Source: Psammoneis japonica (taxonomy: Eukaryota). From it: a stretch of 64,000 nt of DNA. Within the stretch, counting starts at the first letter, position 1, and each line of letters starts with the position of its first letter. This document shows, in pieces, positions 10,690 to 50,100 of the stretch. The position numbers and the translations under genes are program-made. The stretch lies in the NCBI GenBank assembly GCA_008632985.1, contig QPGO01000007.1, positions 310,001 to 374,000 of the forward strand. Reading direction: 5' to 3'. The notes below the pieces were generated by a model. That model saw only the letters and a program-made list of their open reading frames with translations, was not told the origin of the DNA and searched no databases.

Positions 10690-11800
10690 ATGAAACCACG
10701 TACTATTAAACCCACTCGAGGAGTTCAAGCCCACCCAAAAACACTTGTCCTTTGAACGCGGCATTTGTTTGACACTTCTCAGGTGATCACTTCTCCCCAT
10801 TGTCAGGCCTGTCTCTGTTTGTCTGATGGACCCATCTCTGTGGGCTGCAAAGCCACCATCTGGCATGCTGTCACTGCTTCTCCCCTGGTGGATTGCAGTC
10901 GGGAATAAAACAACTGGTCTGTGTCCATCATGGAGATGATTCACAGAGATGATTGGTTGGCATGTGCACACTGTGTTGGTCCAAAGGTTTTCAAAGAAAC
11001 ACATGTCCATGGTCAAATTGAAGGTTGCTCATCAGTGCAACCCAGCCAGCCCTCACTCATGCCTGTCCTGTGAGCATCATCCAAAGGAAGACAGGGACCA
11101 CATCTTGCAGTGTCCAGCCAACAAACCCTGGTGTTGGACCTTTCTCCAAGGCTTGCAAAAACACTGTGACACAATGGACACTGTGCCTCCCCTGTGAGAC
11201 TTTCTCATTGCATCTCTGTAAACTTGGTTTCAGGGGGTCAAATCACCTGTGAGCCTGACACATGCCCCCATGCTGTGCTTGCTTTGGTGCAAACAGTGAC
11301 GCTGGATGGCAACAACTGCTTGATGGAATTTGCTTGAATTGTGGAATGCTTTTCAGGAGATTCATCTGTGGGAGTCAGGTCTGCTCCATCAATGTCAGGC
11401 AGATGATTGCTGCCCTCCAAACTGGTCAGTGCAAATTGGCTCTTGGTCACAACAACAAGACTTGCAAGTCTTTGCAGTGCAGGTCAGAAGAGGCCAAACC
11501 AACTGCCTGCTGCACACAACAAACATCAGGAGCATCTCACCAAAGATTGAGATGTCCTGGTGGAGGATGTGGAAGTGCACCTCACTCACTCTGCAACAAG
11601 AATTCAAAGCTGGGTCACTGTGGCCAAACCTGTGTGCTTCGTGGCACTCATTCCATTCACAGCTGTTGTGGTGGGGCATCATCTTCCAGTGATGCCCACC
11701 CTGGCCAGTCCACACAGCACAGGCTCCTGTCACATCATTTTGATGCAATGCACTGGGAGTGTGGGTCAACTGGTGTCAGCCCAGCTGGCAATGGAGTGGC
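10690..11800 (+). mobile_element. Decayed non-LTR retrotransposon 3' part (C-terminal zinc knuckle)
   Basis: SCLSCEHHPKEDRDHILQCP (CxxC..E..H..C), GWQQLLDG and LWNAFQEIHLWE across shifted frames; TA- and CG-depleted. Confidence 0.6.
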
Positions 11801-11849
11801 AGCACTTTAAGTTGGATCTGTTTGACCAGCCACCTGCCAATGATTTGTT

Positions 11850-14800
11850 TTGTCCCTGACAGCAAGAGGCAAATCTTGAGACAATGCACAAGGACAATGA
11901 CCACAAGGCAACATTTCAACATGGGGATGAAGAAAGCAGACAATTGCAGAAAAAGAAATTTCCAGATGTTGCTGCAGCATGTTGCATGCAAGGACAAAGT
12001 GCTTTTGCTCATGAGTTTGTTGCAGGACAAGGGCAATGGTTCATGACATCCAATTGGAGACAAGAAGTGACAATGTCCAAACTGTGCATCCAACTGATGT
12101 TCTGGCTCTCCATTCTTGGCAGGTGCATGTTATGAAAAGTTTGCCCTGCAATTGCATGAGCCAGAACAAAAGCAAAACAGGCATTGTGCATCATGCTGTG
12201 TCTCAGGAAGCAAGCATCTCAGAGGGGGCATCAAGATCCTGCCATCATTGTGCACCAAATTTTCTAAATCCAAAGTGCACTGGCCCTCTGGTGATTCACC
12301 ATGTGCAAATTCTTCAGTCCCCTCAGGTCAACAAGGTGGACATCAAGTTGGTTTTTGATCCAACACACCTCCTGGCCATGTTCAGTCACCACTGGGCAAC
12401 AAGGAAACTTTCAGTCCCCTCAAGTCAACAAGGCAGACATCAAGTTGGTTTTTGATCCAACACACCTCCTGGCCATGTTTGGTCACCACCGGGCAACAAG
12501 GAACCCCAGTGACCTGCAAGGAACCCACTTGGGAAAGGGAACTGGGTGGGGCTAACCCCAGTCACCACAGATGCTGTGGAGGATCATTCACATGACCCCA
12601 CCTTGCTTTGTGCCTCTGCACATGATCTCAGCAGCAAGATCAGCTGGATTGGTGTGCTCCAATCAAATGTGTCCAGCAAGTGATTCTCCCATCACCACTG
12701 ACTCCCTGATGGCATGACAACAAATGGAGCTCAACTTCTTCTTTGCAATGGGCTCTGGACTTTGTGCATTGTGGACAACCAGCATCTTGTCTCCACAGAC
12801 ACAAGAGGGTCTGGACAATGGCACACCCATCATCCACAACTTGTGTCACAAACTGTGCAAAGCCTCCATGCCTGGCTTCATGGTCTCAAAACTTGACACC
12901 ATGGACCAAGGTTTTGACAGTGCTCTGGTGCTTGGAAAGCCATGCCACCAGGGCCATGTTTAAAGAAGCAAAGCAACCACAGAGTGGGTGCCCAGTTGTC
13001 TTGTCATTCATGTGATCCAAGTCAACAAACAGCTGCAAATCAACCTCCTTTCCCAGGGCTTGAGGTGTGCTTTGCTTGGGATTGCCTCCCAAGTGTCCCT
13101 GCAAAATGACCCTCTTTTCAGGCACAAGGCAGCAGGTGTGCTGTGTTGCAGGTGGGCACATGACCAAACCCCTGTGACTTTGATGTGTGCAAGTGTGGCA
13201 GTGCACAAGAGACAAGAATCACATTTGCTCTCTCAACACTGAATGATTTGGAGGTTCTTGATGTCTGCTGCCTCAAAGAGCAAAAAGACAAGGACCACAA
13301 CTCTGGTGGGTCCTGAGTTTGGACCAGATGCAAGATGAAGGTGGTTGTCCAAAGAGCACTGTGTGGTCTCAAAAGTGCAGTTGTGTCTTTCAAGAATGAC
13401 CCAGCCAGATGTGTTGCTCCAACAAGAGGTCAAGCTTGAAGATGGCTTTTGGTGCTTTGCCTCCTGTGCACTGATGTGTGTCAATGATGTGCTGATGGTG
13501 CACCACTGCACCACATGACAGCATTGAAGGAGCTCAACCAGTGCTCAAGATGAAGCCCAGCTCTGCCATTTGCCCTGAAACACACCTTGGAGCTGAGGCT
13601 TGCCATGTCCAGCTCCCAATTGAGTGTGTGCCTGGGAAATGAGCTCCAGCAAGTGTGCTCAATGGGCTGTCAATGGCACTGAAACCCACTCAGATAAAAA
13701 GAGCCAGAACAAGCACTGCCATGCAGGGCAACAACGCCCATTCTTGGAGAGTGCCTGTTGCCCAGAGGTGGGTGCTTTGCCCAAGCTCAGCATGGAGGAT
13801 GCCCAACTCCACCAGTCACAGGAGGCAGGTGCACCACTGTTGTGGATTGTGGAACTTGGGCATGTGGATGTCATCACAGAAGTTTCCAAGTTGGCCTCAT
13901 TCTTGGTGGTGATGCTGCAGGAGGGTCACCTGGAGGCAGTCCCACATGTGTGTGGATGCTTGAAAGTGAGGGACAATGCCAGGCTGGGTTTGACCTGACT
14001 TTCCTGGGAACAAACATGTCCAATTTCACAGAGTGTGGCTGTGAGTCTTGCAGCTTCACACTGAAGACCAAGTGGCATTTGGTGTGTTGGCATCCTGCTG
14101 ATTTCTTGTCTTTGTCTGTGACCTTGAGCACCTGTTTGACAGTGTTGATTTTTTTGTCAATTGCACTCTGCCATTGATGGCCCCATTGGCCTTGTCAATT
14201 TTGATGGCTTCCCCATGAGTTTTGGGAATCCTTGCTCTTTGTGAGTCTGCTTGCAACAGTGCTTGTTTGCTGTGGCCAAAACCTTGGCATTTCTTGAAAA
14301 AAGAAAGATCCAACTTTAAGTGCCATGACTCCATTGCCAGCCACCAAGCCAGCACCAGCCAACCCACACTTCCAGTGCAATGTAAAGTGTGCAGAAGCTT
14401 GCAAGGGTCAGCCCAGATTGCTGCCACCTTGCAGTGATGCCCACCTGAGGCAACTGGGAATGATGAAATGACACTTTGTAGGTTGGCTCTGGCAACACAA
14501 CAGCAAAGGACACTTGCACTTAGAACTTGGTTTAAGATCAGCAAAAGAAATGAGATGGGAACACAGCTGCCAAACCACTGGCTTGCACTCATCAAAAAGA
14601 GGCCACTTTCACTCCTCCAAGCACTGTGACAAGAACAGCAGAAAGATTGCTGCGTGAAGCAGGGAGCTCAATTTGCCAGCAAGCAAGGAAGGGGTTGTTC
14701 TTGTCCAGGGCTGGAAGGTGAGAAAAAGAAGTGCTTGACAATGTGACAAGTTGGTTGTCAGAAAAAAATGTTCATCTCACATGGAAACAACACCAGAGTT

Positions 14801-17800
14801 TTCACAGAAATGCCAGTGCATGCAGCACATGGATGCCTGTCAAATGGCGTCAACGGATGACTCATGTTCATGCTCGTGTGTGCCTCAAGGGAGAGGTGAC
14901 ACTTTCGCTGCTCAGAGTGAAGAACTTGACAGGCCAACAGGGAGAGAAAAGATTGTTAAGGACAGATTGGTGTGGATGAGAGCAGGTCTGTAATTTGATT
15001 GTTTAAGCCACATTGGAGGATGTTTCAGGGCACAAGGAATTTGCACTGAAACCTGCATGGAAATGATGCTGAGTTGGCAGAAAATTGTGAAAAAATCTCA
15101 ACAGGCTTGCAAACCATGAGATGTTGATGCCACTTGCTTTCCACAGGAAAATGTTGCTTTTGTCATGCTGCAACAAGGGTGTGCAAGTGCAGCTGGCAGA
15201 AATTGCCGAAGTGGGATGGTGACACCAAGCAAAATGCCATCTGAGAAGGGTGACATCAGCAAAAGATGGTGCACAAAAACACATGCAGAGGCTGAGGGTG
15301 AGTGGCTGACATCAAAAAGTGTTGGCATTCTTTCTTGAGAGTTGGGGACAACAGATGTCATGTCATGGCAATCTCCTGTTTGCACCATCAGATGTGGGAA
15401 ATTGCTCAGGAAAACATTTTGGATTGTGGTTTTGCAGGAATCTCATGTGTCCCTTGGCATTGCAAACTTGGAACCCTGGGTTGAATTCCCATCTGTCTGC
15501 ACCTGTGCCAGATGCACATGGCACAACTGTCACTTCACAGGTGGGAGGCCCTGCAAGACAATGGGCAGCACAATGTGCAAAGCAGAGCTTTGTGAGCTGA
15601 ATGATTTGTGTTTTTGCTTGTGTGTGTGTCATCAATGTCCAAGTGATTGGCACAAATGAGTGACTGCACATGCCTTTTGTGCACAAAATTTGCACCAGTC
15701 TGCATGCTCAAGGATCAACAAATGAGGTTTCTTCACAAAAACTTCCGGCACCAAGTGAGTTGAAAGTGTCAGAGCCATCATCTAATCACCTCAAATGTTG
15801 GCCATGTCTTTTTGCAAAACATTTGAGCATGGATGTGGCTCATGAAGCAATGCCAGAGTTGACAAAGCAGTGCCATGCTTTGAGAGTTGAACTGGTTTGC
15901 AGCATCCACAAAAACTTCCAAATGTGTTCTTCAGCATCATTTAAAAAAAAAATCAGATGGGTCACATCTGCAAAAATGCTCTTGTCATTTGCCAAAAACC
16001 ATCATTGTCAAACATCAATGTTCGCCAAATTTCACACTGGCAAAAATTGACAGTTCTTGCTTTGTCAGGAGACAAATCCAAACCCATGGGTTGACTTGTT
16101 GTTGACTCTAAACAAGAAACAGCTTTGAGCCATGCAGATTCCATGTCTCAGCATTGAAATTTTGCAATTTGATGTCAGCCACTCTGTCATTGTTGTTTTT
16201 TTTGAGAACACAAGATCTAGAATTTCTGGGTTCTCCAAGATGCCTTGGCCAATTTTCACATTGCACAGCAAATTGGCCTTGACAATGATCGTCAGGGCTT
16301 TGGACATGGGGTGTGGGGAGCCCCCACTTTTTTCCATGTGTCATGCCACACAGGCTCCACATGATGCGCAGCATGCACACCCAATGGCCCAAAAGCTTGA
16401 TCAACCACACACTCTCACACCACACTCATTGTGTGCTGACCACATTTGCAAATGCACAGTGGGGCCCTGTGGTGGGGATGCCATCTTTTCCCCTGAAACT
16501 GCCCCACTGCATGCAAAGGCCTGACAATGATCTCATGTTTTGGACTCTTGTCTTGCACCCCAAAGAAGCATGAGCTTCAGACTTGCCTGTTGCCTCAAGC
16601 AGCAGGAGCCAACCATCTTTTGCAGCAGTCCTGCCCTGGATTTTGTGCGTTGCTGCAGCTCAGCCAAGTCATTGACACAAAAGCCATTGACAACATGACT
16701 GCCATCATGATGCTTTCTTTTTGGTGTGGCCTGGCTCCCCCCCCCAAAAAAAAGACTGCTGCAATCTTCACAGAGTCACAGACATGCCAAGAAGTGTGGC
16801 ACACCCCCAGGTCTGTGCCCAGCACTGGCCTTTGTTGCAAGCCAAATGCTGCACCTGCAAGCATGTGGCACATTGCACAACGCTCCTCAGTTCTTTGAAC
16901 ATTGCCAACATCTCTCTGCACTGTGGGCAGCCAGTGCTGTGGCACATTTGTGCACCCATGTTGATGTGGACACCGCTCAACTCTTGGGCTGCTGCACTCT
17001 GACAAAATGCTCCACTGGCATCTCCAGCTGCAAGCAGAGCTGACCCTCACAACTTTTTGCATGAGCTGTGCTTGCTGTCAACCTGCCCAGTGCAGATGAA
17101 CCGGGTGCCCCCCACAACCCTGCACCAAAACACAGCATGGTTTGGAGTTGTCTTGTGGTCATTTTTTGAGAGCAGCTCTTGTTTGGAGAGTGAGCTGGAC
17201 AGCACTTGGCTCTGATTTGCTGAGATCAAGGTCATCACTTTCTTTGTTGGAATCCATTTCCACCAACAGCTCCATGGCTGCTGGTGCTGTGAATGGATCA
17301 ACAGAATCTTTTGCATTGACAAAGTTTGGCCAGCAGTCGTTTTGGGTTTTTTGACCCAGTTCTTGATGGGGAGTCTGCTGCAGCCCCCCTCTTTCTTGGC
17401 ATCCAGTGCTGTGATTGTTGCAGGCAAACTTGGCATTGATGGGGGATGCCATTGGTTTTTGCATTTCAGGAAGCACTCAGTCAACAACAGCACATGTCTT
17501 TGGACAAATCTTGGTGCTGTTGTGGGGTGCTGTGCCAACAAAGCCATTGACAAAAGCCCAAACAGCTTTGTGTTTGCAGCACAAGGAAGATGCCTGTGCA
17601 AAGAGTGTGCATCATTGTTGTTGTTGGTGGTGGTGCTCATGCCAAAAAGGCTCACTTCCTTGAACAAAAGAGCAGCGACCACAAAGGGAGTCTTGGAAAT
17701 TCCTTCCGCAACTCCCTTGGCCAATGATGTGGTGCAGTTCATCATGCTTTTTTCTGTGATTTTGGCTTCAAGCCAATGGCCAGTGCTTTTGACATGATTC

Positions 17801-18500
17801 CGGCATTGTGGATTTTGCATGTCACTTGCATCTTGGCTGCTGGGCAACTCCAAAGTGAGGGGGGCACTGGAGACGTGATCAGAGCAGCTTCTCAAAAAGC
17901 AAGACAGTCAGCCCAGCTTCAGCAGCAAACATCATTGCTCATCATTGTGGCCACAAATTGTCATTTTGGGTTTCAGCTGATGCTGCCACATAATGAGAGT
18001 CATGGCAAGCCTGGCTTGTCCTTTGGTGGCAGGTTTTTTGAATTTGCAGTGCTGGCCACCCATCTTCCATTCACCAGAACTTTTGCACACTTTGGAGCAC
18101 ACAAGTTTTGTGTGTGTTTGTGCAACTTCAACCATTTCCTCCCAAAGTGGTGCACAAATGGCCACATTTTGCATTTGGCCCTGACCTTTTGTGAGCTCAA
18201 AGCATGCGGTCATTGCCCAAAGAAAATGCATTTCTCCAGAGTTCAATTTCACACTCATGTTGAAATTGCCAAATGCAAAATGAATGTGAGTGCATGCTGC
18301 AGTGCTGACGCCAAACAGCTGGCTGTGTTGGGATGCCCTGCTGACCCCAGCCACATGGAACAGCCCTGTGGCTGTGGGTGGAAGTGTCCACATCCCAAAA
18401 AGCAGAACAATCATCTGAAACCACCCAACAATGTCTGCTCCATGTTTGGAGCAACAAGAGACAACAACAATGGCACATGACAAAATGGCAGACTGATTTA
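11850..18500 (-). mobile_element. Decayed Ty1/Copia (CoDi-type) LTR retrotransposon, rearranged, with an inverted block at about 13275-14050
   Basis: RT/RNaseH remnants LGKEVDLQLFVDLDH...AWLSKHQSTVKT and ELGHVDVITEVSKLAS...GHLEAVPHVCGCLK; colinear similarity to 60640-64000. Boundaries are approximate and other fragments are interspersed (about 14600-15700 unassigned). Confidence 0.75.
12313..12503. repeat. Tandem duplication of about 97 bp
   Basis: ttcagtcccctca.gtcaacaagg..gacatcaagttggtttttgatccaacacacctcctggccatgtt occurs twice in a row; there is a single copy in the homologous element near 61083. Confidence 0.85.
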
Positions 18501-18639
18501 ACAGGAGAGTTGCCCCTGCAACACAAAAACACAATTTGCCAAATGTTTTGAGCAAAGGTTGGGAATTGTGGAATGGGAGAGTCAGAGAGGCAGGAAAAAA
18601 TCAGAATGGGACATGCAACATGGAGCAGAAGGATGGGAG

Positions 18640-19200
18640 ACAGAGGAAGAAGAAGAAGAAGAAGAAGAAGGGGGGGCTGGAAGTTCAGACAGATGGAGGG
18701 ACAGAAGTTTCAGGAGGCCAAGCCAGGAAGGATTGGCAGGTGGCAAGGTGATTGGTGGAAAAGGTGAGACCAAAGTTGAGGCTCAAGAGCTGGGTGGCCT
18801 GAGATTGAGGGGTGTGGAGGTGTGGCAGGAAGAGCCAAAACAGTCAGGAGAGAGTTGTTTCCAGGCAAAATTGGTTTGGATGAGAAGGCACATTGGAGAG
18901 AAGAGGGAAAATTGGCAGGCTGCAAAAGAGGCATTGGAGTTTGAAAAGTCAGTGGGGACATTCCAGGGGGCATGGGATGAGGCAGCGGGATGGAGGAGGA
19001 GGTGTCATGAGAAAATCCACAGAAAAAGACATGGAACATCAACAGCAATGCTTTGGTGCATGGAGGGAGCATTGGGAGGTGTGGAACCAGGAGCAAGCTG
19101 AGTGCCAACATCAGCAGGGTGCTTGAGAGGACAGTCAGGAAGAAGTCCTGGCATGGGCTTGAGGTGTGGACTTCTTGTTGACAAGAGTGGCACAAGCCAC
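18640..19200 (-). repeat. Purine/pyrimidine-skewed dispersed repeat, homologous and inverted to 22900-23480; possibly a non-LTR element 3' region
   Basis: gagagagttgtttccaggc (about 18848) versus reverse complement gagagagttgtttccaagc (about 23178-23196) with colinear flanks; (GAA)n at 18645-18670. Confidence 0.5.
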
Positions 19201-20899
19201 AAAGGGGGCCAAGGGTTTAAAGTGTGGTCCAGACAGTGTTGTGGATGTGGTTTGACAAAGGACCCTCATGCATCTTGGAGCAAAAGCGTGGTCACCAAAG
19301 GGTGTCAGAGTGAAAATGACCACATGGGGGCAAGGAAGAGGCCATTGGCTGGGGGAGAGAACTGGGAAGCAGAGCTTGTGGAGGAGGAGAGTGAATTGGG
19401 TGGAAGAGAGACAGTTGCTTGGTCATGCATCGTGTCATGCCCGCCTGCCTGGCTTGGGAGGTCCACAGAAATTGTGTGGAAAATTTAACTGGCCAAACTG
19501 AAAAGTGCAATGCTCTGTGGGGAGCAGTGCTCATGACAGCAAGAATTCTTTTTTTCTGTTTTCCGGTTTTCTCCTCTGGCGTTTGTGTTGTGTGTGTGCA
19601 TCTTTTCATCTTGAGAAGCACGGCACTTGCATGACACTGCATGACACATGCTTCTCAACACACCACCATTGTTGTGCCATTTGACTGCATTGCAACCACG
19701 TGGCCCTGCCAAAACTGTGTGTCAGGGATCAAACAGCAGCAGGACCATGTGAAATTGGGCCAACTGAGTTCTGTGCACAAGCTCCTCTGCAGCAAAATCT
19801 TCAGGTGACAAACAGAAATTATCAATTGCCAATGGAAAAGGAGAGGAGGCACCAATTTTGCAATCGAGCAACAAATTGTCCATGCTTGAAGCATGCCCAT
19901 TGTTCTTCAAACATTGAAGAAAACACCCAGCCTGATCATTGACCCTGCTCAGACAAGCATGATCTTTGACCCTGCTCAGACAAGCATGACGTGCTGTGCC
20001 ATCTTGCATGTTCACATCAAGGCAAGGGGTGGAAAACACAAATTGTTGCACCTGTGCATCAAAACGAGCATCCTTGATGGATCATTTTTCTTGCACCAGT
20101 TGTTTCTTGTTGGCAGAGACACCTTTGCGTTTTGCCTTCTTTCCCCACAATGCTGTTGTTCTCGGCGGCGGCGGCATGGGTGCTACCCAAGAAGAAGGAC
20201 TCATGACAAAGGCCAAGCCATCATGTGCCGCAACTGACAGAATGGCAAGAAGGGCACAAGGTGGCCACCATGGTGAAAAAGCCACAGTCATTGCAGCAAA
20301 GAGGAGACGCCAACCAAAGAGTGGGCGAAAGAAAGAACAATGAGCGGCGAGGGTTGCATCGTTGGGGTCGCAAAATGGGCAAATGTGATGTGCAGCCCTT
20401 GTCCTCAGTGGGCATGTGAATGAATGTCCTGCTTCATTTCCCCTCCATTGGCATTGTGGGTGTGGTGACGTGCCTCCTGCATGTGGGGTGCTGCAGGAAG
20501 GATGGACTGACTGTCAACTGGTGGCACGTTCTTGCTGGGTTGGAGTGCAGCACTGCTGGAGTACGAAGCAATGCATGCAGTGCAAAAGATTCCATGTTTC
20601 CGAATTGCAATGCCCACCCGCCCCCCCCCAAGCACCTTCTTTGACGCCATCTTTGGGAGGGGAGGTGACCTCGTCCGGCACCAACAAGGGCATTGGGAGC
20701 ACGACAGAGGCTGGCAAAAACCAATCATCACCATGGTGCAAGAGGCATGTCCGGATTCCAAAGTCGTGCATCTGCCGAAGTTCTCTCCTGATGAATTACC
20801 ATGCCAGGCACCTGGTGTTGAATCTGACGTTTCCATGCAAGATGAAAGACGGGGAGACGGTGCGCACCAAAGTGACAAGTTAAGTTCAAGATCAGAAGT

Positions 20900-21580
20900 G
20901 CCAAGAACCATGAAAACATCAAGATGTTGCTCCACCTTGGCGACAAGAAGTTGCAAGAACTCATGGACTACAATGAATTGTCAGATGTGGTTGAAGATCT
21001 CAAGCATGAGGACAATGCAGCTGATCTGTCATGGACATTTCAAGACGTGCTCAAACACCAAGGACCTTTGAAGAAAGGTGATCCCAGACGCAACACAAGT
21101 TCATGGAATGTCAAGGTGAAATGGGATGCCGGTGAAGAGACTTGGGAACCTTTCAACATTGTGATTGAGCAGACCCTGTCACGTTGGCGGCGTGCACTCG
21201 TGATCATGGATTGCTCAACGTTCCTGGATGGAAACGTTGAAGCGGTGCTTCAAGTGCTCAGACTTGCCAAGAAGCTCGCACTGTGACAAATGCTGCAAAG
21301 AAGTTGAAGAACAATCAAGTTCACTGCAAGTTTGGTGTGTTTGCATTCCACGCATTTTTTGTGAAGCCAAGATGCTCAATGAAGAGAATGGCAACACAAA
21401 ATGGCAAGATGCCATCAAGGCCGAGATTGCTCAGTTGATGGAGTGTTCTACCTTCCATGACTTGGGCTGTGCAGCCATGACACCTGAAGGATGTCAGCAC
21501 ATCCAATGTCAACTAGAATTCAACGTCAAGCAGTCCCTGAAGCACAAAGCAAGATTCGCTGCATGGGGAGATGTGACTAA
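20900..21580 (+). mobile_element. Copia (CoDi-type) pol fragment: chromo-like segment and RT start
   Basis: VLKHQGPLKKGDP...WNVKVKWDAGEETWEP; IPR..EAKMLNEENGNTKWQDAIKAEIAQLMECSTF...PEGCQHI...FNVKQSLKHKARF. Confidence 0.75.
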
Positions 21581-21741
21581 CAACACAGCAACCCACGGCA
21601 ATAAATGACAATGACATGAACAAACAACAACGCAACCAATGGAGATGATGGCGCCGGTGAAGATTGCTGTAGAAGAGGACAAACTGTTTTTGTTAGACCA
21701 GGAGAATCTTTCAAAATGTCTCACCGTCGGAGCTTGATTGA

Positions 21742-21851
21742 CAGCAAAGGGTTTCAGATTGATCGGATTGAATTGGTTGAGAGTGGCAGACAATGCATGC
21801 TGGGCCCACTGCAACAGGCTTTTTTGGGGGTGTTTTGGCGGAGAGAACGAC
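21742..21851 (+). repeat. 110-bp dispersed repeat, mutated copy of 27641-27750
   Basis: Direct alignment with 27641-27750; TA and CG sites of that copy are replaced by TG or CA here. Confidence 0.9.
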
Positions 21852-21879
21852 AACCAAGAAGCAAAAAACAAGGCAACCT

Positions 21880-22620
21880 CTCATGAAATTTGACTCCAGC
21901 TTGTTTTGTTCTCTCACTGAAATGCCGAGGCCAGAAGTCAAAGATGCCTCACATGGTGCAGCACACGTTGCTTTTAATGCAGACACACCTCTGCTTTTGT
22001 CGGTTGAAGATCCTGTTGGTGAACTTTGCACCAGAATTGCTTTTGCAGCATTAAAAGAATGGCAGAGACCCAATGACAAGAAGGGGTTCCCAATGTTCTT
22101 GAAGAACAACAGAGTTGGTCCAGAATGGGTTGAAGATTGGCTTGGAGATGAAAAGTGCACTCTGTTTGTGGATGAACTGAATCTGCTCCAGAGACACATT
22201 GGCAAGACTGAAGCAAGTTTCCTCAAGCAACACTTCCTGCTTCAAAACGGAAGGGGGTTGGTCTTCACTTCTCATGTGTGGCGCATTTCGGAAATGACCT
22301 CGCCATCCACCTGTCATCAAACACTGATCTGCCTCTTGTGTCAATTCCACTCCCAATCATGCTGTCGCTGCATGCAGCAAGGCGTGCCTTTGGCACAAAT
22401 GACTTGTTGGCACAGGGTGCCCTTTTTCTGGGATTGATTCCAGGGCTGATTGTTGAGTGGAAGATGCACCGAGGACCAATGGAGCACCAAATTGCCACTG
22501 TTTTGAGGTTCCTTGGTGCACTTCAAAGCCAGCAAGACATTTGCAGGCTGCTGAGCTCTGTTTTGACAGGTGCGGGCGTCAGAAAGCATGTGGAAGAGCT
22601 GATGACTGTCACATCGTGGC
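21880..22620 (+). pseudogene. Decayed Crinkler/RHS-type P-loop NTPase fragment
   Basis: ELCTRIAFAAL...WVEDWLGDEKCTLFVDELNLL (Walker B-like)...FLKQHFL...LVFTSHV, then LSLHAARRAF...FLGLIPGLI in a shifted frame; no Tyr. Confidence 0.45.
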
Positions 22621-36250: not shown

Positions 36251-36299
36251 GAACACAACACAGGTGTGTGGTGTCCTGTTTGTGACAACAGAAGAGAAT

Positions 36300-37700: not shown

Positions 37701-37729
37701 GGGTTGGAACATCACCCCAAAGGAGCTCA

Positions 37730-39670: not shown

Positions 39671-40229
39671 TGCCTCAAGAGCCAAGATGCTGCCAAGGTT
39701 GCCAGCGAGATGTTTGCGACACAGCTGAAAAGCACACAGACACCTTCTTCAGCATTTTGTTGACACACAAGAAGGAGACATGGGTGAGGCACATGACAAA
39801 CTTGGAGGCATCAATGAGGGACATCAAACACACAACAAAAAGAAGAAAGAGTGATTTTTGGATTGGGGCGCCATTGGCAGCTCACAGCCAATCTGTCAAT
39901 TGGCTTGCAAATGCCTGGAAATGCCAGTTGCTTTTGTCTTTCATTTGTTCACCCTCACCTCTGCATGGCATGGCATTTTTCTGTCAAAATGATGGATTTT
40001 TGGGTTTTGTGCTTTTTGAGTGCAAGTTTGCTTCATTTCGAATCGGTGGTTGTGCAGACAACTCAACCCCCTTTGTTTCCATGCCTGACAAGGACAATCA
40101 TGCAATGCAAGCCTGGATTGTTGCTGCATTGTTAAAATCAATGTCCAGTGCTTGCAACCTTCAGTTGCAATGCCTTGGCTGCATGGTCATTTGTGGCACC
40201 AGGAGAGCCTGAGAGCCATTTTAGAGACC

Positions 40230-43200
40230 CCTCTTTTGTTTGCCTGAATTGACCAAGGAACTCGCTGAATGCCAGCAACATGTGCCCTTCATTTTCCTGC
40301 CATCAAGCTTTTTCCCAAGATGGAGTCCTTTCCTGTTGTCACTCTAGACCAAATCACATGAGCCCAGTTGTCTCTGTGGTCAAGAAAGTTGTTGACAACC
40401 AGGCTCTTTCCATCTTGTCATCCTCCCTGGAGTTTGTGCACAGTTGTTGCATTGTTGCACAAAACTGGGAACTGAGTCATCTGCATCCTCTGACTGATTC
40501 TTGGAGTTCTCTTGTCAATGAAACCCACCACAGGGACAGCAAAGTTGACAACACATGTTTTTTTCTCCTTGGAGAAACACAAAAGAGACCCCCCACCCTT
40601 GCTTTTCCACATGCCTCTCAAGACAATGAACTCAGCTTGTAAAGCACAGACTGACCTCACCCAATGACTGTCAATCCTCATCAACTCAAAATCATCCATC
40701 CTTCAGCTCAACTCCCTCAAAAAAGCCAATGGAGTTGCTGACCTCCCTTTTCTCCACACGTCCTCATCAAGGCTTGTTGTCATCAGAGGGCAGCCCTGGC
40801 AAAGATTGAGAAGTGGGTCCACATGTCTTGATTTGTTCCCAGCTTGCTTGACACAAGCAACCAGACAGGCTGCAAACACAATGTTCTTGCACAGCCCATT
40901 TTTAAAAAATCCACATGCTTGTGCCTGCTGGCATTTTCTGCCATTTTCTCACTCAGGGCTCTGCTCCTGCAGACACAATTGTGTGGGTTAGAATTGGCTG
41001 CACAAGAGATTTTGAGTGTGTTTCTCCAACACCTTCTTGAAAATGCTGTCATTGAAAGCATTCCTTGATTTGTTCCAAGCTTGCTTGACATGAGCATCTG
41101 GACAGGCTGCAAATGAATGTTCTTGGACAGCTCATTTTTTGAAAACCCGCATGCTTGCACCTGCTGGTGTTTTCTGCTTTTTTCCACTTGAGAGCGCTTG
41201 CAAGGACCACAATGGTGTGGGTTGGAGGTGGCTGTGCAAGAAATGTTGAGTGTGCTTCCTCTGACACCTTCTTGAAAATGCCATCATTGACAACATTCCT
41301 GTCAAGATTGGCTGCAAGGGCACAGGCTGCATTGCTGAGGATGTTGCTTTCCTTTGGCTTGGTGTCTTGCCAGGCCCAGATGCAATGATGCACCCAAATT
41401 GTGGCCATTTGTCAAAGTCAGCTGCAATGTCACTTGTTGACATGTGCATTGCATTGTTTGGCAAGAAAGTCTTTGTGTGGCAATTTGTCTCCATTTTTGA
41501 ACCACAAGCATTTTGTCTCCACCTTGTCATGGAGAGACAAAATTTTGTCAGGAGACAAAAGGAGATGGGCGGAGACAAATGGAGACAAATGAACAGAGAC
41601 AAATGGAGACAGACAGGAAAATCTTGTCTCCAATGGAGACAAACCACAGGATGCCATTGACATGGACGCAACTCAAGTCAGCCATGGGATTGGTTGTGGT
41701 GGTGGCAATTTTTAACACCAAGTTTAAGAAACACCTGGAGAGCATGTTAAAACCTCATTGTGATCACACAATGCAAGTCCCAAAGCAAGGGATGTTCACT
41801 CAATGCCTTCAATCATCATCTGAACTTTTCACTCAATTTTGTTGTTTCTTCTGCATCTGACACAACAGCAAATGTTTTGAAGGTTGAAAGTGAAATGTGA
41901 CATGCAGGCACTCATGACTTGGATGACATGTTTGACAAAGTTGACACAGAAAGGCACAAGCTTTTTCTTTGACAGTGTTTTCCATGTCAAAAACAACAGC
42001 AAGCATGGCAATTCTTGCTTGTCAAATTGACTCAATGTCCACATTGGACCATCCAAAATTGTCAATCAATGGCTCAAATGCCACCCTCCAATGCCAAATC
42101 AGACAATCCTTGGCAGTCATCAGGCATCAAAAATTCATGCAAATTCCTGAGAAGCCACAAGCAGTTGGACCTCAGATCGCATGAATGAGCTGGCTCCCTC
42201 CAAATTGATTCAAAGCACAGCCAAAATTGTTCACATTGTCTGGAAAGAGGAGTTTTCAAGCAGCCAAGGCTTCAAGATTGGGACCAAACTGCAGAAAATG
42301 CCAACAGTGACAGGTGAATGATGACAGCTGGCTGGAACCCTTCTGTTTGATGCTCATTTTTGTTCAGTTTGTCAATGACACAGATTGAAGGCTTTGCAAC
42401 AGCACAAGAAGCACCTGCTGTGCAGAAAGACACATTGAATGTGAGCAACAGCAAGAGTTCTTGACAAACACAATTGGCAACATTGAAGCCCAAAAGTGGG
42501 GTTGATCCAGAACTTGGTGTGCACAGGCAGCTCTCTCTGCAAGGCTCCAAGCACTGGAAATCGTTGCTGCTGCAATGATGAGAGTGGAGCTGTCAATGAG
42601 CAATTTGGCAAAGAGCACAGACTGGTGCTGTCAATGGCTGATTGTGACTGGGAGTGACATGCCACAACCTCAAGGAGATTCAATGTGCCACTGCAGATTG
42701 AACTGGAGCTCTCTGGCACGTGAAAAAAACACACATGTCAATGTCTGTTTGTCAACAGCCCAGTTCACCCATCCTTGTTGTTAAATGACACATTTGTTGA
42801 AACAGGACAAGACAACCAGGAAAGACAAACAATGCCCCAAGAGTTCCTTGCACCCACCACAACAAACCCAGTTGTCTCTGTGGTCAAAGTTGTTGACAAC
42901 CGGGCTCTCCATTGCCCCCCCTCCTCCCTGGGAGGAGTTTGTGCACAGTTGTTGCATTCTTGTTGCACTGAACTGGGAGCTGAGTCATCTGCATCCTCCA
43001 ACTGATTTTCAGAGCTCTGTTGTCAATGAAACCCATCACAGGGACAGAAAAGTTGGCAGCGCACATCTCTCTCCCCAGAGCTGCACAAAACAGACCTCCC
43101 CAAGCGCGCCTTTCCTCATGCCTCAAGACAATGGACTCAACTTGCAAAACACAGGCTGACCTCACCCTGTGACTGTTGAATGTCATCAACTCCAAATCAT

Positions 43201-43990
43201 CTGAAAAAAACACTTTCCTTCAGCTGAACTCCCTAAAAAGAGCCAGCAGTGCCACTGACCTCCTTTTCTCTTCACGTCCTTGTCAAGGCTTGTCACCAGC
43301 ATCAGAGGGCAGCCATGGCAAAGGTTGAGAAGTCAGTCCACATGCCTTGATTTGTTCCCAGCTTGCTTGGCATGAGCATCTAGACAGGCTGCAAACAAAG
43401 TGTTTTTGGACAGCTCATGTCTTTTGAAAATCCACAGGCTTGTGCCTGCCAGCACTCTGCTTTGTTTTTACCACTTGTGAGGTTGCTTGTGCACACCGCA
43501 CATGGTCCACAATGGTGTGGGTTGGAGGTGGCTGTCAAGAGATTTTGACTGTGTTCCCTCTGACACCTTCTTGAAAATGCCATTGTTGACAGCATTCTGG
43601 TCAAGATTGGGTGGCTGTGGCATGGGCTGCATTGCTGAGGATGTTGCTTTCCTTTGGCCTGGCCTGGTGTCTCACCACCAGGCCCAGAGATGCAATGGCA
43701 TGCTTGTTGATTTCCTTCACATTCTTGGCCCTTGAATTGTTCAAAAGCATGAAAAATCTTGCCCTGCACAGGACCACCCTCAAATTGGTGGTTTCCTCTG
43801 AGTTTGGCAAAACAACCAATTGAGCCATTGACGCCATTGTTCAAAGTCTTTAGAGCAGACAAACAGCAAAGCCCAAGAAATTTGTGGACATCCTTCTCTC
43901 TGAGAATGACAAATGTCACAATGTTCATCATTGGAAATTCAAATTTTTGCTCAACTCCATGTCATGTGCTCTCTCTGCTCTGGAGTTGGA
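40230..43990 (-). mobile_element. Decayed Helitron PIF1-helicase region, with the C-terminal block duplicated (about 40360-41400 and about 42865-43700)
   Basis: QFPVLCNNATTVHKLQG, NWAHVIWSRV, HVDPLLNLCQGCPLM and AACALAANLDRNVVNDGIFKK are PIF1/Helitron helicase motifs with Tyr replaced by Cys/His. Confidence 0.75.
41480..41645. repeat. Cluster of short direct and inverted ggagacaaa / tttgtctcc motifs
   Basis: The motif recurs about 10 times in both orientations; it is probably a small TIR-element remnant. Confidence 0.6.
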
Positions 43991-44131
43991 CCCAGTCAGT
44001 CAGCAGAGAGAGCCACTCCATCTCCACTGGTGGTCATCCGTTCAGACAGCATGATGGCACACATGCCATCTCTGGCTGCCGCACGGTGTTTCTGGCGCCA
44101 ATTCCATGAGATGGCACACAAAACAGAAGTG

Positions 44132-47100
44132 CAGTGCGGGGGGCTGCGCACAAATGTGCTTGAGGTGCACATGACGCAACTCCTTGAGTTTTTCGATTCA
44201 CAAGGCCAGCGACAGCGTTTTGGAAACTGCAGACCATGACGCATGCAGCCGTGAAGCTGTCTGATTGGTCAGATCTGATTTGGGAGAGTGCAAAGGGCTC
44301 AAAGATTGACCAACGTGGGAATCATGCACAACTGGCATGTTGTGACGACAAACAGGAAATGACATTAAATGAATTTTGTCTTCACAAATTCACTTCAAAA
44401 ATTGCATGAAAAAAAAACAAGTGCGCCATTTTTTCCACACCAACACACCACACACAAAATCTTGCACATCGTGCACCACCATCATGATGTCGACAAAGCA
44501 AAAGCATGGTGCTGCTCCTGCTTCTGACAGAGTGAAGGCAAGTCAAGCTGTGCTTGAATGCATGCCCATTCGACGCACTTGCAATCAGGCTTTGACACCC
44601 ACTGGGGCAAAGAAAATGGAAGCATTTCTTTCAAACACTCTAGACCCGCATGGATGGTGTCTCACATCTAACCCGAGTGTTGTGCAGCAAAGAAAGAATG
44701 GGAAGGAAGGATGGCATGTTCAAGTGCTGAGGCAAAGAAGAGAATCAGACAAAAAAGGAAACATGAATGGAGCAAAGCTTTTGAAATGCAAGCAGAAGCT
44801 GAAGATAATGCGCTCAACTGCAGATGTTCTTGAGAGAGCAAGAAGTCACAGCAATGCCTGAAAAATTGGTTGGACTGTGTTTCATTGCTTGGCACAACAT
44901 TCAAAGAGACAAACGAGAGCAAGGACAAGGAATCAGATGTTGCCACTGCTGGATCAAATAAAGAAAATGTTGAGCCGGTGAACAAGAAGTGGCGTGGGCC
45001 TTGCAATTTGAAATCACTGGATGACAGCTGCGTTGGCACCATCATCACAAATGCATGCTGGAGCCACCATTCAACATTTGAATCCAACTCAAGACTGATG
45101 AAATGAGATCAGCACTGGTCCTGGGAGGATGCGTGCACCAAGAGTGCACAAACCATCCAAAGCCATTGGCAAAAATGCACGGAAGAGCAGGCAAGAAAGG
45201 CGCTGGCTGAAATGAAAAAAGCCAACTTGTTTGCAAGAAAGTCATCAACGAATTCTCCAAAAAGATCAGACAAGACAATTGGACCAGTCTTCCACTCGGG
45301 GGTGACAACCCCAAGGTTGCAGCCAGATTCAACCCTTGGGACTGTGACCATGTGCTCATGAAAAGCCGCCACGTTTGCGATGCCTTGATGCACATGTTTC
45401 ATCATGCAGCCAATTCCAATCCTTGCACATGGTTAGAAGCATGCATGCTGCTGCGTCACGAAACTGCAATTGGGTGTGCGCATGCACCGTTGCCAACTGG
45501 TGTGTTGAACTGAATTGCACTCTGCACCTGCGGTTCTGTCCCTCCCAACATGGCCATTCATTGAGCAAAGCAAGGTCCCCATTCTCCAAAGATGAGTCTC
45601 TTCTTTTGCAATTCAAGAGTTGGGCACAAATGGATCTCAAGCACTTGAATGTCAAGAAAGCAGCCAACTGGACAAATGACACTCTGTCAAAGGACTGGAC
45701 GGTGGAGCAACTCAACACAAACAAAATCAAGTGCCCTGTTTCCAAACACATTGCAGCGTGGTGGATGCAAGAGTCTGGGTTCATGCATGACCACCATAAA
45801 AAGTCATGTTGCACCAACCGACAAAGACAAAGATGTCGTGGAAGCCGCGCCGAGCACATTGAAAAGTTTTCAATGAAGAAATTTTTGAGGCATGCTGGGC
45901 TCAGCTCCCCAAGCCCACATGTGAACAAATGGTGTGTCAAACAAAAAACCATGTCAAATCATCCAAAATCAAGGGCAAGCTCAAAAGGTGAAGCAAGAAG
46001 TGTTTGAGTTCCTCAAGAGCAAAGCACACCACTGTTGCAACAAGGACAGTGTTGACATGGTGGAAGTCCATGTCAACACCTTCTGCGACATCGGTCAATT
46101 GCCAGTGTTGGGTCCATTTGGTGGAAAGACAAGCGTTTGCAAAGGTGACGTGAGCCAGAGAATTTGGTTTGGACAGGACGAAGCAATTTGTCAATCTAGT
46201 CAACTTGATGACTGCTGCTTGTCAATCAATGGTGAACAGACAATGGTCAAAGGGGCTGGGTGAGGGAAAGATGGCAAGTGCAATGACATCACATGAATTT
46301 GGTTTTGGTGTTGCCATGACCAAAGCACAACTCACTGCTGTCAATGAGAGGCAAAAGAATGACAGCCACAAGGACGCTGCTGCAGCTGAGTGCCTTTTGG
46401 GAAGTGCCGCCAAGGAAACACATCCACTGAAAGAGTCGCCGTTTGTTGGGATCTTGAACTGTGGAAAGGGGAAGGATGGGTGCTGGTTGTACAATCACAT
46501 GGTCCTCCAAATTGAGGACATCATTGACAGCATGCACACTCTCCACCCGGATCCAGATGAGCCAACATGATGCAAGTGTGATCTGGTCTTTGAACCAGAC
46601 CACTCGTCTGGTCACAATGCCAATCGCCAGGATGGTCTCACTGCCACTTCATTGCTTCTCAACTTCACCTGGGATGGGAAGCAGCGGTTGATGAGAGGCA
46701 CTGTTTTGACAAGTGGGAATGTTGGAGATGCAGCACATGCAAGGGCACTGCCAGTTGGAGAAGTGCGCCACAAGCATTTCCGCAATGGGGACTTCCTCCG
46801 GTCAGCAAACCCAATGCCCAACCATGTGATGCTGTCATTGAAGGAGAGGGCAAGGAAAAGACATGCACAGTGCCGCAGCTCAGGAAAATGCTGAGGACAA
46901 TGACATGTGTTCTGAAGGGAACAAAGCTGATCTCATTGGATGCCTTGTCCTGGCAAAAACACCAACGACGCACAGGAAGCAGAAAGTTGTCAAGGACTGC
47001 ATTGGGAAACCAAAGGGAGCTTTGCAGATGGCATTTGAGCAAGGCTTTTTTGATGAGAGCCCAATGGCAAATGGCCACAAGGTTTCAATGTTGGGAAGGG

Positions 47101-49374
47101 TCCTGGTAAAGGGAGGCAAGGAAAAGGGGATTAAAGAGGTGAGAGATGACAGTGCCTCCTTTTGAAGATGCTCCAGGGGTGCCACGATTTCAAGACCAAG
47201 AAATCAACAGTTGTCCCTGTTGTTGACGACAAGCTTGGTTGTTTCATGTGGCTCACACCCAAGTGCCATCCTGAAATTGCTGGTGTTGGCACTGAACGTG
47301 CATGGGGACACAGCAAATTTTGGTTCCGAAATGGAAACAAACAAAGGCTCAAGGAAAACGTGCTGAAAGCATTGTCCCATGATGTGTTGACGACAGAGCG
47401 AGTTCGCAAATTTGACCGGAAAGCAAGGGATTACAAACTCACCTGTCTCTTTCTTCTTGCAAATTCCAATGGGTCTGCTGAAAGCATTAAGAAAGAACAC
47501 ATCGAGCGCATCACAAAGGTGTTCAACAACACCGGAGCACCACATTTTCCAGATCACTTGTCCGTCAATTTTTTCATTCAGGGGACCTCACTGAAAAATT
47601 GAAACATTTCAATCCGATGCACCACGTGAGTTTCACATGGCAAAACACATCATGACCAACCATCAGACGTCAGACAGAGCACACTGGACACTCCAATGGT
47701 GATGTTGCATGTTGTGTTGACGCACATGATGAATGCCACTGCAAAGATGGTGAATGGAAAAGTGCAGAAAAATGCGAGAACTCACCCCCCTGCAAAGACC
47801 GCACACTGTCGCGGCACAATTGTGAGAAAGCCAAGGGCTCCGCACTCAAGGGATTTGAGACTGATTTGTTTGCAACGTTTTATGACTGGCAATGAAGATC
47901 ATTCAGTGAGAGAGCAGCGCAGACTGAAGCTGTGTCCAGTCCAGCGGACCCTCAGTCGATGGCGGAATCGCGCGCGGATCGAAAATGCCTGCTGTGAGTG
48001 TCGGCATGCCAGCAACATCAGAGCTTGTGTGTTGCAAGGACCGGAGCTTTTCCCATTGCCCTTTGTGCAATGTGCTTCCCTGATGCGACCAGTTTAGAAA
48101 AGATTGGAATGTTGTGTTGAGCCACTGGAATTTGGTGCAACGAAGGCCCCCGCGTTCTGTTGTTAGAATGCTTGGTCCTTGCCACCCATGTTTTTATGAG
48201 GTCAGTTTTAGACAAAAAATGGATGGAGGAAATGAACACAACACAGTGATGTGGTGCACGAGCAAGGGGCAGTGGGCGCGCACAATTTGCAGGCAGTGCG
48301 CACGAATTTTGAACTGATTCTGGTGCTGTGTTCCTTTGTGATGGTGGGATTTTGTTGTCTTCTGGGCATGGCATCAGCACTCTCTGTGGACTGCGTGGAT
48401 CCACTGAAGTTGCTGCTTTTGAGAGCTTGGGCATTCCCTTTGTCGTTTCTTCAAATTGAGCAATGCATTGATCAACATCACCTGCTTTCAACCCAAAGTG
48501 AGTGCAAAGATCCGCCAGAATTGCTGCTTGATTGTCAACTGCCATTTTGAGAAGTTGTTTCTTTCTTGGGATGGTGAACTTTCTCCCATCCATGGCCTTC
48601 TTGACTTCTTCAGGCTCAACATCACCCAAACCAATGTGGCTGATGAAGTTGGAGGGCCCGAGCGTTGCTGCAGCGCTGTTGATCATTGTCATGGCTTTGG
48701 TCTGGATGTGGATTGGGGTGTGGCATCTTTTGCCCCTGGTGCTCCATGCACGGTCCGCTTGCTGAAATCGCTGCTTGGAGCGAATTGAGGTGTTTCAATT
48801 TTTCAGTGAGGTTCAACAATTAAAACAATTGACGGACAAGTGATCTGAAAAATGTTGCTGCACAGTGGCGCTCTCGATGCTGACCATGGGTTTGTTGTGA
48901 TGTGAGTCGGCTCATGATTTGTTCAAGTTGCATTCAAGCGTTTTTGGATGTTTTGTGTGGAACTGGTGCCAGAAATGTCACAGGCAATTGTTCAAGCAGA
49001 AAAATACACCAGCACATTGAATGCTGTCATTTTTGCCTTGACGTTGCACAAAAAACAGATGCGGCACCGCAAAGCATTGGCAAAAATGAGAAAATGAAAT
49101 TGGGGGTCATTCATGCGACCTCAGAATGCACGAAAAGGATGAACACATTGTGTGCATCATTTCAGATCAATTTGTCATTGATCCCAAGTGTAAAAATGAT
49201 CAGAAAATGCCAAAACTAATTTATTCTTGCCAATGAAAAATTGAAAATGCACTTTCTCGTTGTTTTCACACTTGGGGTCGACGACAGATGTCGTCAGAAT
49301 GTGGCTGGGACCAATCACGGGCTCCCCATTTGGTCGTGCAAGCTGTGCACAATCATGTCCAGCCCCCCGCACAG
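44132..49374 (+). mobile_element. Decayed IS630/Tc1/mariner-superfamily DNA transposon; transposase about 44490-47540, resuming about 48870
   Basis: IWFGQDEAI, KGLGEGKMASA..SHEFGFG, LNCGKGKDGCW, LVFEPDHSSGH, GKPKGALQMAFEQG and TPKCHPEIAGVGTERAWGHSK. Putative ends are cagtgcggggggctg (44132) and cagccccccgcacag (49374); the ends are less certain than the transposase call. Confidence 0.75.
47543..48854 (+). mobile_element. Nested TIR element (about 70-bp TIRs) with an IS630/Tc1-type HTH remnant; relative of the MITE at 50307
   Basis: cattttccagatcacttgtccgtcaatt...cctcactgaaaaattgaaaca versus the reverse complement at 48790-48854; APHSRDLR (compare YSxDLR). It splits the host transposase tail HRS|ALDADHGF. 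Confidence 0.8.
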
Positions 49375-49499
49375 CTCACCACTTTTCGCACCAACCCCAG
49401 CAGCATTCTGCGTCACACACCAGAATTTTTAATTGTTTGTGTGGTCCTCAAAACACTGTGTGTCATCACGATTGACAACCACCAATTTTTGCTCACACA

Positions 49500-50100
49500 C
49501 CACCACGATGACACATTCTGTCGAATGAGTTTGGGCCCACCCGAAACAGTTGCTGCAAATTGCCAAACACTTGTCACTTTTTGCGCGCAAAGCACGTTTG
49601 ATCGCTCCGAAGCGGAAATTTTCCATTCGTTGCTGGTTTGCACCAGATCCGCCAGAATTCCACAGAGACCCCTTCAGACGTGTCACCCGCGCCTCTCGTA
49701 AAGCAACACGAGACAATGCGTGCAACAATTTATGATGATGGCGCCACCCTTTGCCGCCCTTTCTGTCACTGCTGTCGTGCAGCACGAGCTTGCTGAAACA
49801 TGGCAGAGTGACGAAAAGGGCAGAATTGACGACAATGGGCACTGCCATTGTTGGCTGCATGCCACTGTGGTTTTTGTCGGAGGTCGGAGGTGGGGTGAGT
49901 CAGAAAACAGCAAGATGTTGTGCTGTAAATTTCTGCGTGGCTCTGGTGCAAAATGGCAACGAATGGAAATTTTCCCTGCAAAAACGAGCGAAGGCGCTTC
50001 ATGCGCGAAGAGTGACAAGTGATTGGCAATTTGTAGCACCAAGCCATTTGGGCACAGCTGTGTCAATGAGGTGCTTGTGGATCATGTGTGTTTCATTGGC
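49500..50100. mobile_element. MITE-like foldback with about 110-bp imperfect inverted arms
   Basis: caaattgccaaacacttgtcact...aaattttccattcgttgc...tttgcaccaga (49556-49647) versus the reverse complement of 49941-50033. Confidence 0.65.

Follow-up and report, generated by a model that had tools for sequence, protein, structure and literature searches.

The 64,000-nt window considered here (forward strand of contig QPGO01000007.1, assembly GCA_008632985.1 of Psammoneis japonica, positions 310,001 to 374,000; all coordinates below are those of the window) is divided between gene islands of ordinary composition and long blocks in which the dinucleotide TpA is nearly absent while TpG and CpA abound; these blocks, and the mutational process that may have produced them, are the subject of the present work. 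Blocks and islands were delimited by means of a per-kilobase table and a 400-bp sliding scan of dinucleotide observed/expected ratios (o/e), the latter yielding TpA-poor segments at 1–4.7, 10.7–23.6, 30.3–50.2, 52.0–57.7 and 61.0–64 kb. A total of 554 open reading frames (ORFs) was scanned against Pfam, namely 157 stop-to-stop ORFs of at least 110 amino acids (aa) from the whole window and 397 of 55–109 aa from the blocks. The ordinary Pfam genes (CHY/RING finger, thioredoxin, HECT, DUF5898 and bestrophin) are confined to the islands, and the matches within the blocks are at chance level only, under the curated cut-offs. The best named relatives of the bestrophin ORF come from diatoms (Stephanopyxis turris, Entomoneis sp., Seminavis robusta and Epithemia), with a top identity of 84%, and on this ground, too, the window is assigned to a diatom.

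Pooled, the five blocks (44,954 bp) hold 192 TpA (o/e 0.06) and 662 CpG (o/e 0.26), with TpG and CpA raised to o/e 1.80 and 1.74, respectively; in the four intervening islands (19,045 bp) the corresponding values are 0.61 for TpA, 0.96 for CpG, 1.22 for TpG and 1.16 for CpA, the base composition of blocks and islands being near-equal. The contrast lies far beyond chance and amounts, for TpA, to a 10-fold reduction relative to the islands; it bears out what an earlier note on this DNA, made from its letters, had claimed, that is, TpA scarcity with TpG/CpA abundance in these blocks and normal TpA in the gene islands between them. From the island density 1,933 TpA and 2,382 CpG would be expected in the blocks, and the resulting deficits (−1,741 TpA and −1,720 CpG) are roughly balanced by the surpluses of TpG (+1,526) and CpA (+1,741). 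The depletion of TpA is even across the 42 block kilobases (median o/e 0.05, range 0.00–0.23) and that of CpG uneven (median 0.13, range 0.00–0.79); per kilobase the two are correlated (Spearman 0.51), yet several 1-kb windows combine a TpA o/e of 0.13 or less with a CpG o/e of 0.7–0.8.

The blocks are repetitive: self-comparison of the window reveals paralogues at 67–80% identity (Table 1), and the summed depth of contigs from a public run, X1, whose Logan contigs were compared with the window, is between ~64 and ~435 over block 3 versus 59.7 over a single-copy island. As to their coding content, TAA and TAG triplets occur in the blocks at 2.0 and 1.1 per kb versus 10.9 and 8.0 in the islands; since the change of TpA to TpG or CpA removes TAA and TAG and never makes an in-frame stop, the blocks abound in long spurious ORFs in either orientation. 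The block ORFs contain 0–0.6% tyrosine, with cysteine and histidine each near 4–5%, as predicted by the conversion of TAY codons into TGY or CAY. Two of these frames have relatives elsewhere. For the 651-aa frame of block 4 these are P0121, found by a word-indexed search (34% identity, no Pfam match), and eight metagenomic loci, L001–L008; for the 402-aa frame of block 1 there are 46 relatives, part of which have weak, sub-threshold matches of PARP-catalytic or DUF3990-like type, while the ESM Atlas gives a low-recognition DUF3990/PARP lead only; this frame is probably a decayed gene of the ADP-ribosyltransferase fold inside a hypermutated domain. At the ten columns, over both ORFs, where the relatives conserve tyrosine, the window retains tyrosine in one and reads histidine or cysteine in six and some other residue in three; the share of the 651-aa ORF, which is weak, is seven columns (tyrosine 1, histidine 2, cysteine 1, other 3), and the three columns of the 402-aa ORF read histidine, histidine and cysteine.

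The direction of change can be read from repeat copies whose first 330–530 bp lie in normal sequence (51,823–52,150 and 60,621–61,150), compared with their paralogues lying wholly inside blocks. The 38 TpA sites of the normal-sequence copies appear in the depleted copy as TpG (18), CpA (15), unchanged TpA (2) or another dinucleotide (3), which corresponds to conversion into TpG or CpA at 33 of 38 polarisable sites; both products occur within one element, as the earlier note had stated. The 32 CpG sites read CpA in 11 cases, TpG in 9, CpG in 6 and otherwise in 6, while ApA is kept at 81 of 100 sites and becomes GA or AG at nine. When two depleted copies are compared, TpG in one copy faces CpA in the other at 135 of 283 double differences, and such doubles imply independent hits on an ancestral TpA or CpG after the copies had separated; their flank classes show no excess of the purine..pyrimidine (R..Y) type (30, 24, 24, 30), probably because many of them are CpG-derived. 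The strand of the hit is interspersed along the sequence (49 runs versus 45 expected, z = 0.97). It might be thought that no mutator is involved and that foreign or selfish DNA, TpA-poor from the outset or selected against TpA, makes up the blocks, and indeed an ancestral, TpA-containing full-length copy of a family is not seen in the window; this explanation is nonetheless very improbable, given that the parts of copies just outside the blocks hold TpA at normal density and that the doubles require a TpA or CpG intermediate, and it is largely refuted by these observations taken together with the metagenomic contigs described below, in which, with their outgroups, conversion is seen directly.

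At the borders of the blocks the densities of TpA and CpG shift jointly within ~100–400 bp. The left border of block 2 lies between 10707 and 10906: the dense run of TpA ends at 10,707, and the next two TpA are those at 10,906 and 11,219; the density of CpG drops at the same border positions as that of TpA. The repeat copy beginning at 60621 is depleted only from ~61,100 on, so that the mutated domain begins within the repeat, and two repeat copies thus have ~530 bp and ~330 bp, respectively, outside the mutated domain. A short repeat at 30304–30465 retains its TpA although the X1 contigs over its bin sum to a depth of 652 versus ~60. Because the borders cut repeat copies and because this high-depth repeat is spared, homology alone seems not to set the domain, and a strict homology dependence of the TpA process seems, from the sequence, to be absent; the loss of CpG stopping at the shared borders makes it plausible that the domain corresponds to a methylated, silenced compartment. 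The 33 conversions at 38 sites, the lack of strand runs and the sharp borders together support what had been proposed in the earlier note, namely in-place A:T>G:C change at TpA in double-stranded DNA, on either strand and within bounded domains.

The same borders bear on the possibility that the changes preceded integration, i.e. that RNA was edited at UA, reverse-transcribed and reinserted. A preference for 5' U in A>G changes is typical of RNA adenosine deaminases (bioRxiv 10.64898/2026.01.13.699255), which lends this view some appeal; it is, however, very unlikely to hold, considering that in two cases the onset of the mutated domain falls within a repeat copy, with a border common to the CpG loss, that both strands are struck without strand runs, and that the units of the tandem duplication in block 2 differ from each other by TpG/CpA exchanges. 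Furthermore, no reverse transcriptase was found among the 554 Pfam-scanned ORFs of the window and blocks, and in the chlorarachniophyte alga Bigelowiella natans, to which we return below, integrated DNA present in a single copy is reported to acquire the mutations de novo (bioRxiv 10.64898/2026.01.13.699255, Mettrop et al.).

Table 1. Blocks, islands, repeats and open frames of the 64,000-nt window (o/e, observed/expected ratio)
Feature	Position	Strand	Properties
TpA-depleted block 1	1..4550		TpA o/e 0.05–0.39 per kb, CpG mildly depleted (0.22–0.79); cut by window start
Gene island	4551..10849		TpA and CpG normal; CHY/RING zinc-finger, thioredoxin-domain, HECT ubiquitin ligase (Pfam)
TpA-depleted block 2	10850..23450		TpA o/e 0.02–0.10 per kb; CpG 0.02–0.15 to 20 kb, beyond 0.28–0.48
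Gene island	23451..30449		TpA and CpG normal; DUF5898 protein, bestrophin (Pfam)
TpA-depleted block 3 (largest)	30450..50050		TpA o/e 0.01–0.12 per kb; CpG 0.00–0.18 to 44 kb, beyond 0.31–0.80
TpA-depleted block 4	52150..57500		encloses less depleted patch at ~55.3–56.0 kb
TpA-depleted block 5	61150..64000		cut by window end
Repeat family 1, depleted copy	11825..14041		other copy 60621–62445; 74–80% identity, partly inverted
Repeat family 2, depleted copy	31067..32713		other copy 51823–53543; 68–80% identity
Repeat family pair	15.8–16.9 kb and 62.7–63.8 kb		from self-comparison
Repeat family pair	40.4–41.4 kb and 42.9–43.7 kb		from self-comparison
Tandem duplication, 97-bp period	12313..12503		in block 2; two 94-nt aligned copies differ by TG/CA double changes
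Unmutated repeat edge	60621..61150		homologous to 11825–12408; TpA/CpG kept where the 11825–12408 copy has TG/CA
Second unmutated repeat edge	51823..52150		homologous to 31067–31400; copy depleted from ~52,150 on
Short repeat, ~160 bp	30304..30465		at exact left border of block 3; second copy 7801–7965, 93% identity
651-aa open frame	55755..57707	+	in block 4; Tyr 0.6%, Cys 4.8%, His 4.8%; family without Pfam model
402-aa open frame	559..1764	−	in block 1; Tyr 0.5%, Cys 4.0%, His 4.0%

Some further features of the window may be added to those of Table 1. The 0.7-kb patch of block 4 at 55.3–56.0 kb has a TpA o/e above 0.25; it lies just ahead of the 651-aa ORF and extends into its beginning. 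The short repeat pair 30304–30465/7801–7965 has an internal inverted match. A near-perfect palindrome of 259 bp at 50302–50561, with arms of 106 nt that are 97% complementary, ends at the sole N of the window (50561) and may represent an assembly join or a foldback element; related pieces of 73–75 bp are found at 47542–47616 and 48781–48858, within block 3.

The same footprint is present in metagenomic contigs among the relatives of the 651-aa ORF. The NOC4/CBF gene of L001 has its named relatives in pennate diatoms, and over positions 251–2250 of this contig the TpA o/e is 0.03–0.21 with TpG and CpA at 1.5–2.0; in L003, positions 3251–4250 have a TpA o/e of 0.10–0.20. The comparison of L003 (1682–4267) with L004 (6254–8839), which align without gaps over 2,586 bp at 96.9% identity, is the most informative: out of 80 mismatch columns, 41 have TpA in L004 and TpG (22) or CpA (19) in L003, with a single column in the reverse direction, the remainder consisting of 20 columns that form ten TpG/CpA doubles, 7 CpG-linked columns and 11 others. 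Outgroup polarisation, for which the match regions of the eight loci were aligned with MAFFT and which covers 35 of the TpA>TpG/CpA sites, gives an outgroup majority of TpA at 23 sites, of TpG/CpA at 6, a tie at 4 and another letter at 2. Counted on both strands, A>G changes between L004 and L003 affect 41 of the 168 A sites preceded by T; for A preceded by A the count is 2 of 420, by C 13 of 468 and by G 1 of 329. This excess at TpA over other contexts is one of the observations on which the earlier note had made its proposal depend. Since TpA falls from 84 in L004 to 44 in L003 and CpG stays level (99 versus 98), the TpA process runs without CpG decay; judged from these alignments, the TpA signature is a recent one in the metagenomic diatom contigs.

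The fraction of L004 sites mutated in L003 depends on the flanking letters: it is 18/19 for RTAY (9 TG, 9 CA), 14/29 for YTAY (12 TG, 2 CA), 8/15 for RTAR (7 CA, 1 TG) and 1/21 for YTAR, from which it follows that the strand hit is the one reading 5'-T-A-Y-3'. Where a site has TAY on a single strand, that strand correctly foretells the product 19 times out of 22 (p = 0.0004). The TpA sites that survive in the window agree with the same TAY rule: the ratio of their density in blocks to that in islands is 0.012–0.017 for the RTAY contexts ATAC/GTAT, ATAT and GTAC, 0.023 for ATAG/CTAT, ~0.09–0.12 for the remaining contexts with TAY on one strand, and 0.20–0.32 for the YTAR contexts CTAG, CTAA/TTAG and TTAA.

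The authenticity of the blocks rests in the first place on run X1, probably the source sample of the window, whose Logan contigs contain 88% of the sampled words of 26,001–35,000 and span 30 of 30 bins of 26,001–40,000 at ~60x; inside block 3 they include a piece of 1,756 bp with 6 differing letters and one of 1,386 bp with 3. The footprint is thus reproduced, within a few letters, outside the deposited assembly, albeit probably from the same sample. Contigs of single-copy depth differ from the window by TpG/CpA doubles at 31143/4, 31861/2, 35584/5 and 37646/7, and X1 also shows changes between TpA or CpG and TpG/CpA; these differences, which could reflect near-identical paralogues or, in a diploid, a second haplotype with mutations of its own, are not used as evidence. 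An artefact of sequencing, base-calling or assembly, such as modified bases miscalled in long reads, is hardly credible: the platforms of the assembly and of X1 are not on record and the sample is probably shared, which leaves such an origin some room, but the X1 contigs match the blocks with few differences per kb, the signature recurs in contigs of other assemblies (L001, L003), the copies differ by indels and transversions as old repeats do, and symmetric miscalls would not be expected to yield a TpA o/e of 0.06 with a clean TpG or CpA at each site.

Contigs of X5 and X3, two further runs that stem from other organisms and from metagenomes, reach only the gene at 26.0–27.6 kb and cover nothing in the blocks. 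This DUF5898 gene (26001–27642) is found in them at 95–99% nucleotide identity, in runs labelled as other organisms and in biofilm and other metagenomes, and the contigs part from the window just past the gene; the gene is either conserved to an unusual degree or part of a mobile or contaminant piece common to these samples.

As a whole, these observations are best explained, with a probability that we put at about 0.75, by silenced diatom repeats mutated in place, at TpA and CpG and nearly to saturation, with deamination as the presumed chemistry. The blocks would represent silenced repeat DNA of the diatom nuclear genome, mutated near saturation where it is now located, and two processes would have acted on it: (i) an A:T>G:C change at TpA, giving TpG or CpA according to the strand hit, with a strong preference for 5'-T-A-Y-3'; and (ii) a decay of CpG to TpG/CpA, as expected for methylated cytosine. 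The two share their borders and yet are separable, the first being the faster, as the kilobases of low TpA and high CpG and the constancy of CpG between L003 and L004 show. Chemically, the first process may consist in an enzyme deaminating the adenine of DNA to inosine, which pairs like G when the DNA is copied; its candidate agent is a TadA/ADAT2-like or other deaminase, its targeting would rely on a chromatin or 5-methylcytosine (5mC) mark rather than on sequence homology, and its putative function would be the disabling of invading DNA. The composition, the direction of change, the strand symmetry, the context rule, the sharp borders and the second diatom data set are the firm part of this picture; enzymatic adenine deamination of DNA is our best guess.

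The same in-place mutation of TpA by a different chemistry, i.e. TET/JBP-type thymine oxidation (to 5-hydroxymethyl- or 5-formyluracil) or error-prone repair, has to be weighed against adenine deamination. A TAY preference on one strand is an RTA preference on the opposite strand, and oxidised thymine is able to mispair with G, two points in favour of this proposal; we regard it as unlikely, given that thymine oxidation has no supporting observation in this analysis and that, as argued in the B. natans preprint, the U-A context suits tRNA adenosine deaminases. Error-prone repair of the Pol eta type (WA>WG), one of the candidate mechanisms put forward in the earlier note, does not fit: ApA is not depleted (o/e 1.20 in blocks versus 1.16 in islands), and A>G change after A is found at 2 of 420 sites versus 41 of 168 after T.

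Several points count against the in-place deamination of silenced repeats as set out above. Transposon or viral Pfam families number zero among the 554 ORFs scanned, and the transposon classes named in the earlier note (Copia, LINE, Helitron, Tc1/mariner and KDZ) are accordingly unconfirmed; likewise, the family of the 651-aa ORF has no relative among viral contigs. The polarised sample within the window is small (38 TpA sites), the TAY strand predicts the product at 14 of its 20 polarisable sites (p = 0.06), and the tyrosine test goes in the predicted direction yet comprises ten columns. Run X1 counts as an independent assembly, but neither as an independent sample nor as a platform known to differ. 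No deaminase gene is present in the 64-kb window, and sequence alone cannot separate adenine deamination from thymine chemistry on the opposite strand.

The closest known counterpart is the hypermutation of TpA to TpG/CpA described in B. natans, the sole description of TpA/TpG/CpA hypermutation found in the literature, and the statement of the earlier note that no such system had been described is therefore outdated. In that preprint, 231 of 302 nuclear mutations in 15 mutation-accumulation lines fell in two hypermutable regions, an integrated giant-virus region and a virophage region, and the mutation rate in such lines is raised ~1000-fold; A>G and T>C account for 230 of these 231 mutations, all 230 lying on TpA; the genome contains 124 clusters depleted in TpA and enriched in CpA and TpG; and an ADAT2-like DNA adenine deaminase is proposed (bioRxiv 10.64898/2026.01.13.699255). 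As there reported, A:T>G:C change confined to TpA, giving TpG or CpA by strand, occurs in discrete regions of an otherwise normal genome, with TpA depletion and CpA/TpG enrichment (seen in B. natans in clustered 1-kb windows), and defence against invading DNA is the role proposed in both cases; TpA-confined transitions, both products and discrete regions are all found in the present window, which places the blocks with TpA hypermutation of the B. natans type. The differences are also clear. B. natans is a rhizarian, whereas the host here is a diatom, a stramenopile; the giant-virus insert of B. natans retains a TpA value of 0.45, whereas the depletion here is near saturation; the targets there are foreign (giant virus, virophage, transposon), and here they are dispersed repeats in which no viral or transposon domain could be recognised. 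Here, moreover, CpG is depleted along with TpA and within the same borders, whereas the main text of the preprint makes no mention of CpG, and the 3' pyrimidine rule has no equivalent in that main text, which gives no context beyond the dinucleotide, though its supplements may hold one. What is new with respect to B. natans is therefore the diatom lineage, the near-saturation, the borders shared with CpG and the 3' pyrimidine rule; full-text literature searches found no account of TpA hypermutation in a diatom.

Fungal repeat-induced point mutation (RIP) resembles the present case in that dinucleotide-specific transitions ruin repeated or invading DNA in place and leave a compositional footprint with clear borders; its direction is, however, the opposite one, since RIP makes TpA from CpA/TpG through C:G>T:A transitions, mainly at CpA, while here TpA is destroyed and A:T is attacked rather than C:G. 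Moreover, the tract mutated by RIP matches the duplicated sequence, unlike the domains described here, from which ~530 and ~330 bp of repeat copies are left out; dependence on duplication is not evident, since borders fall inside copies and the high-copy repeat at 30.3 kb is spared, and the host is not a fungus. The deamination of 5mC fits the CpG half of the pattern and its restriction to repeat blocks (20 of 32 ancestral CpG have become TpG or CpA, and the CpG o/e is 0.26), and in the diatom Phaeodactylum CG methylation is reported to be restricted to transposons (PMC12344493; PMC9998398). CpG decay driven by 5mC covers just about half of the gain in TpG/CpA, and it cannot remove TpA, which drops from 84 to 44 between L004 and L003 at a CpG of 99 versus 98.

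Hypermutation directed against invading nucleic acid is also known in animals from APOBEC3, acting on DNA, and ADAR, acting on double-stranded RNA, the base deamination being in our case a presumed one; APOBEC attacks C and ADAR acts on RNA, unlike the present process, in which chromosomal DNA appears to be changed in place. ADAR tolerates A besides U at the 5' position, in contrast with the A after A left untouched here (2 of 420). The loop target of TadA is UACG, and early TadA-derived adenine base editors prefer YAC, which would fit the T-A-Y rule. The 5' T and the T-A-Y context are consistent with a likeness to TadA or ADAT2-ADAT3, any deaminase role here being putative; such an enzyme would have the CDA fold, with the motif HxE...PCxxC, and convert A that follows T or U. 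The natural target of the tRNA adenosine deaminase is A34 after U33, and a U-A context has been argued to fit it (bioRxiv 10.64898/2026.01.13.699255).

As for what these observations mean, they carry a practical warning: the loss of tyrosine codons and of TAA/TAG stops creates many long false ORFs and defeats profile-based annotation of transposons. For the motif-defined rewriting of A:T to G:C in chromosomal DNA one earlier description was found in the literature searched, a 2026 preprint on one alga; the 3' pyrimidine rule, the independence from CpG decay, the borders shared with CpG and the fact that these borders cut repeat copies narrow the search for the enzyme and for its targeting. We suggest tentatively, and at less than even odds, that a DNA adenine deaminase system of 5'-T-A-Y-3' specificity, directed by chromatin or 5mC, is common to diatoms and chlorarachniophytes and erases TpA from silenced invading DNA. 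If this is true, the shared system would supply a natural DNA adenine editor, and a eukaryotic genome-defence pathway, the mirror image of fungal RIP, would be widespread in the SAR supergroup (stramenopiles, alveolates and Rhizaria); the saturated footprint in the present window, together with the recent one in other diatom contigs, suggests a wide occurrence of the system in a group that is ecologically dominant and for which genetic tools exist.

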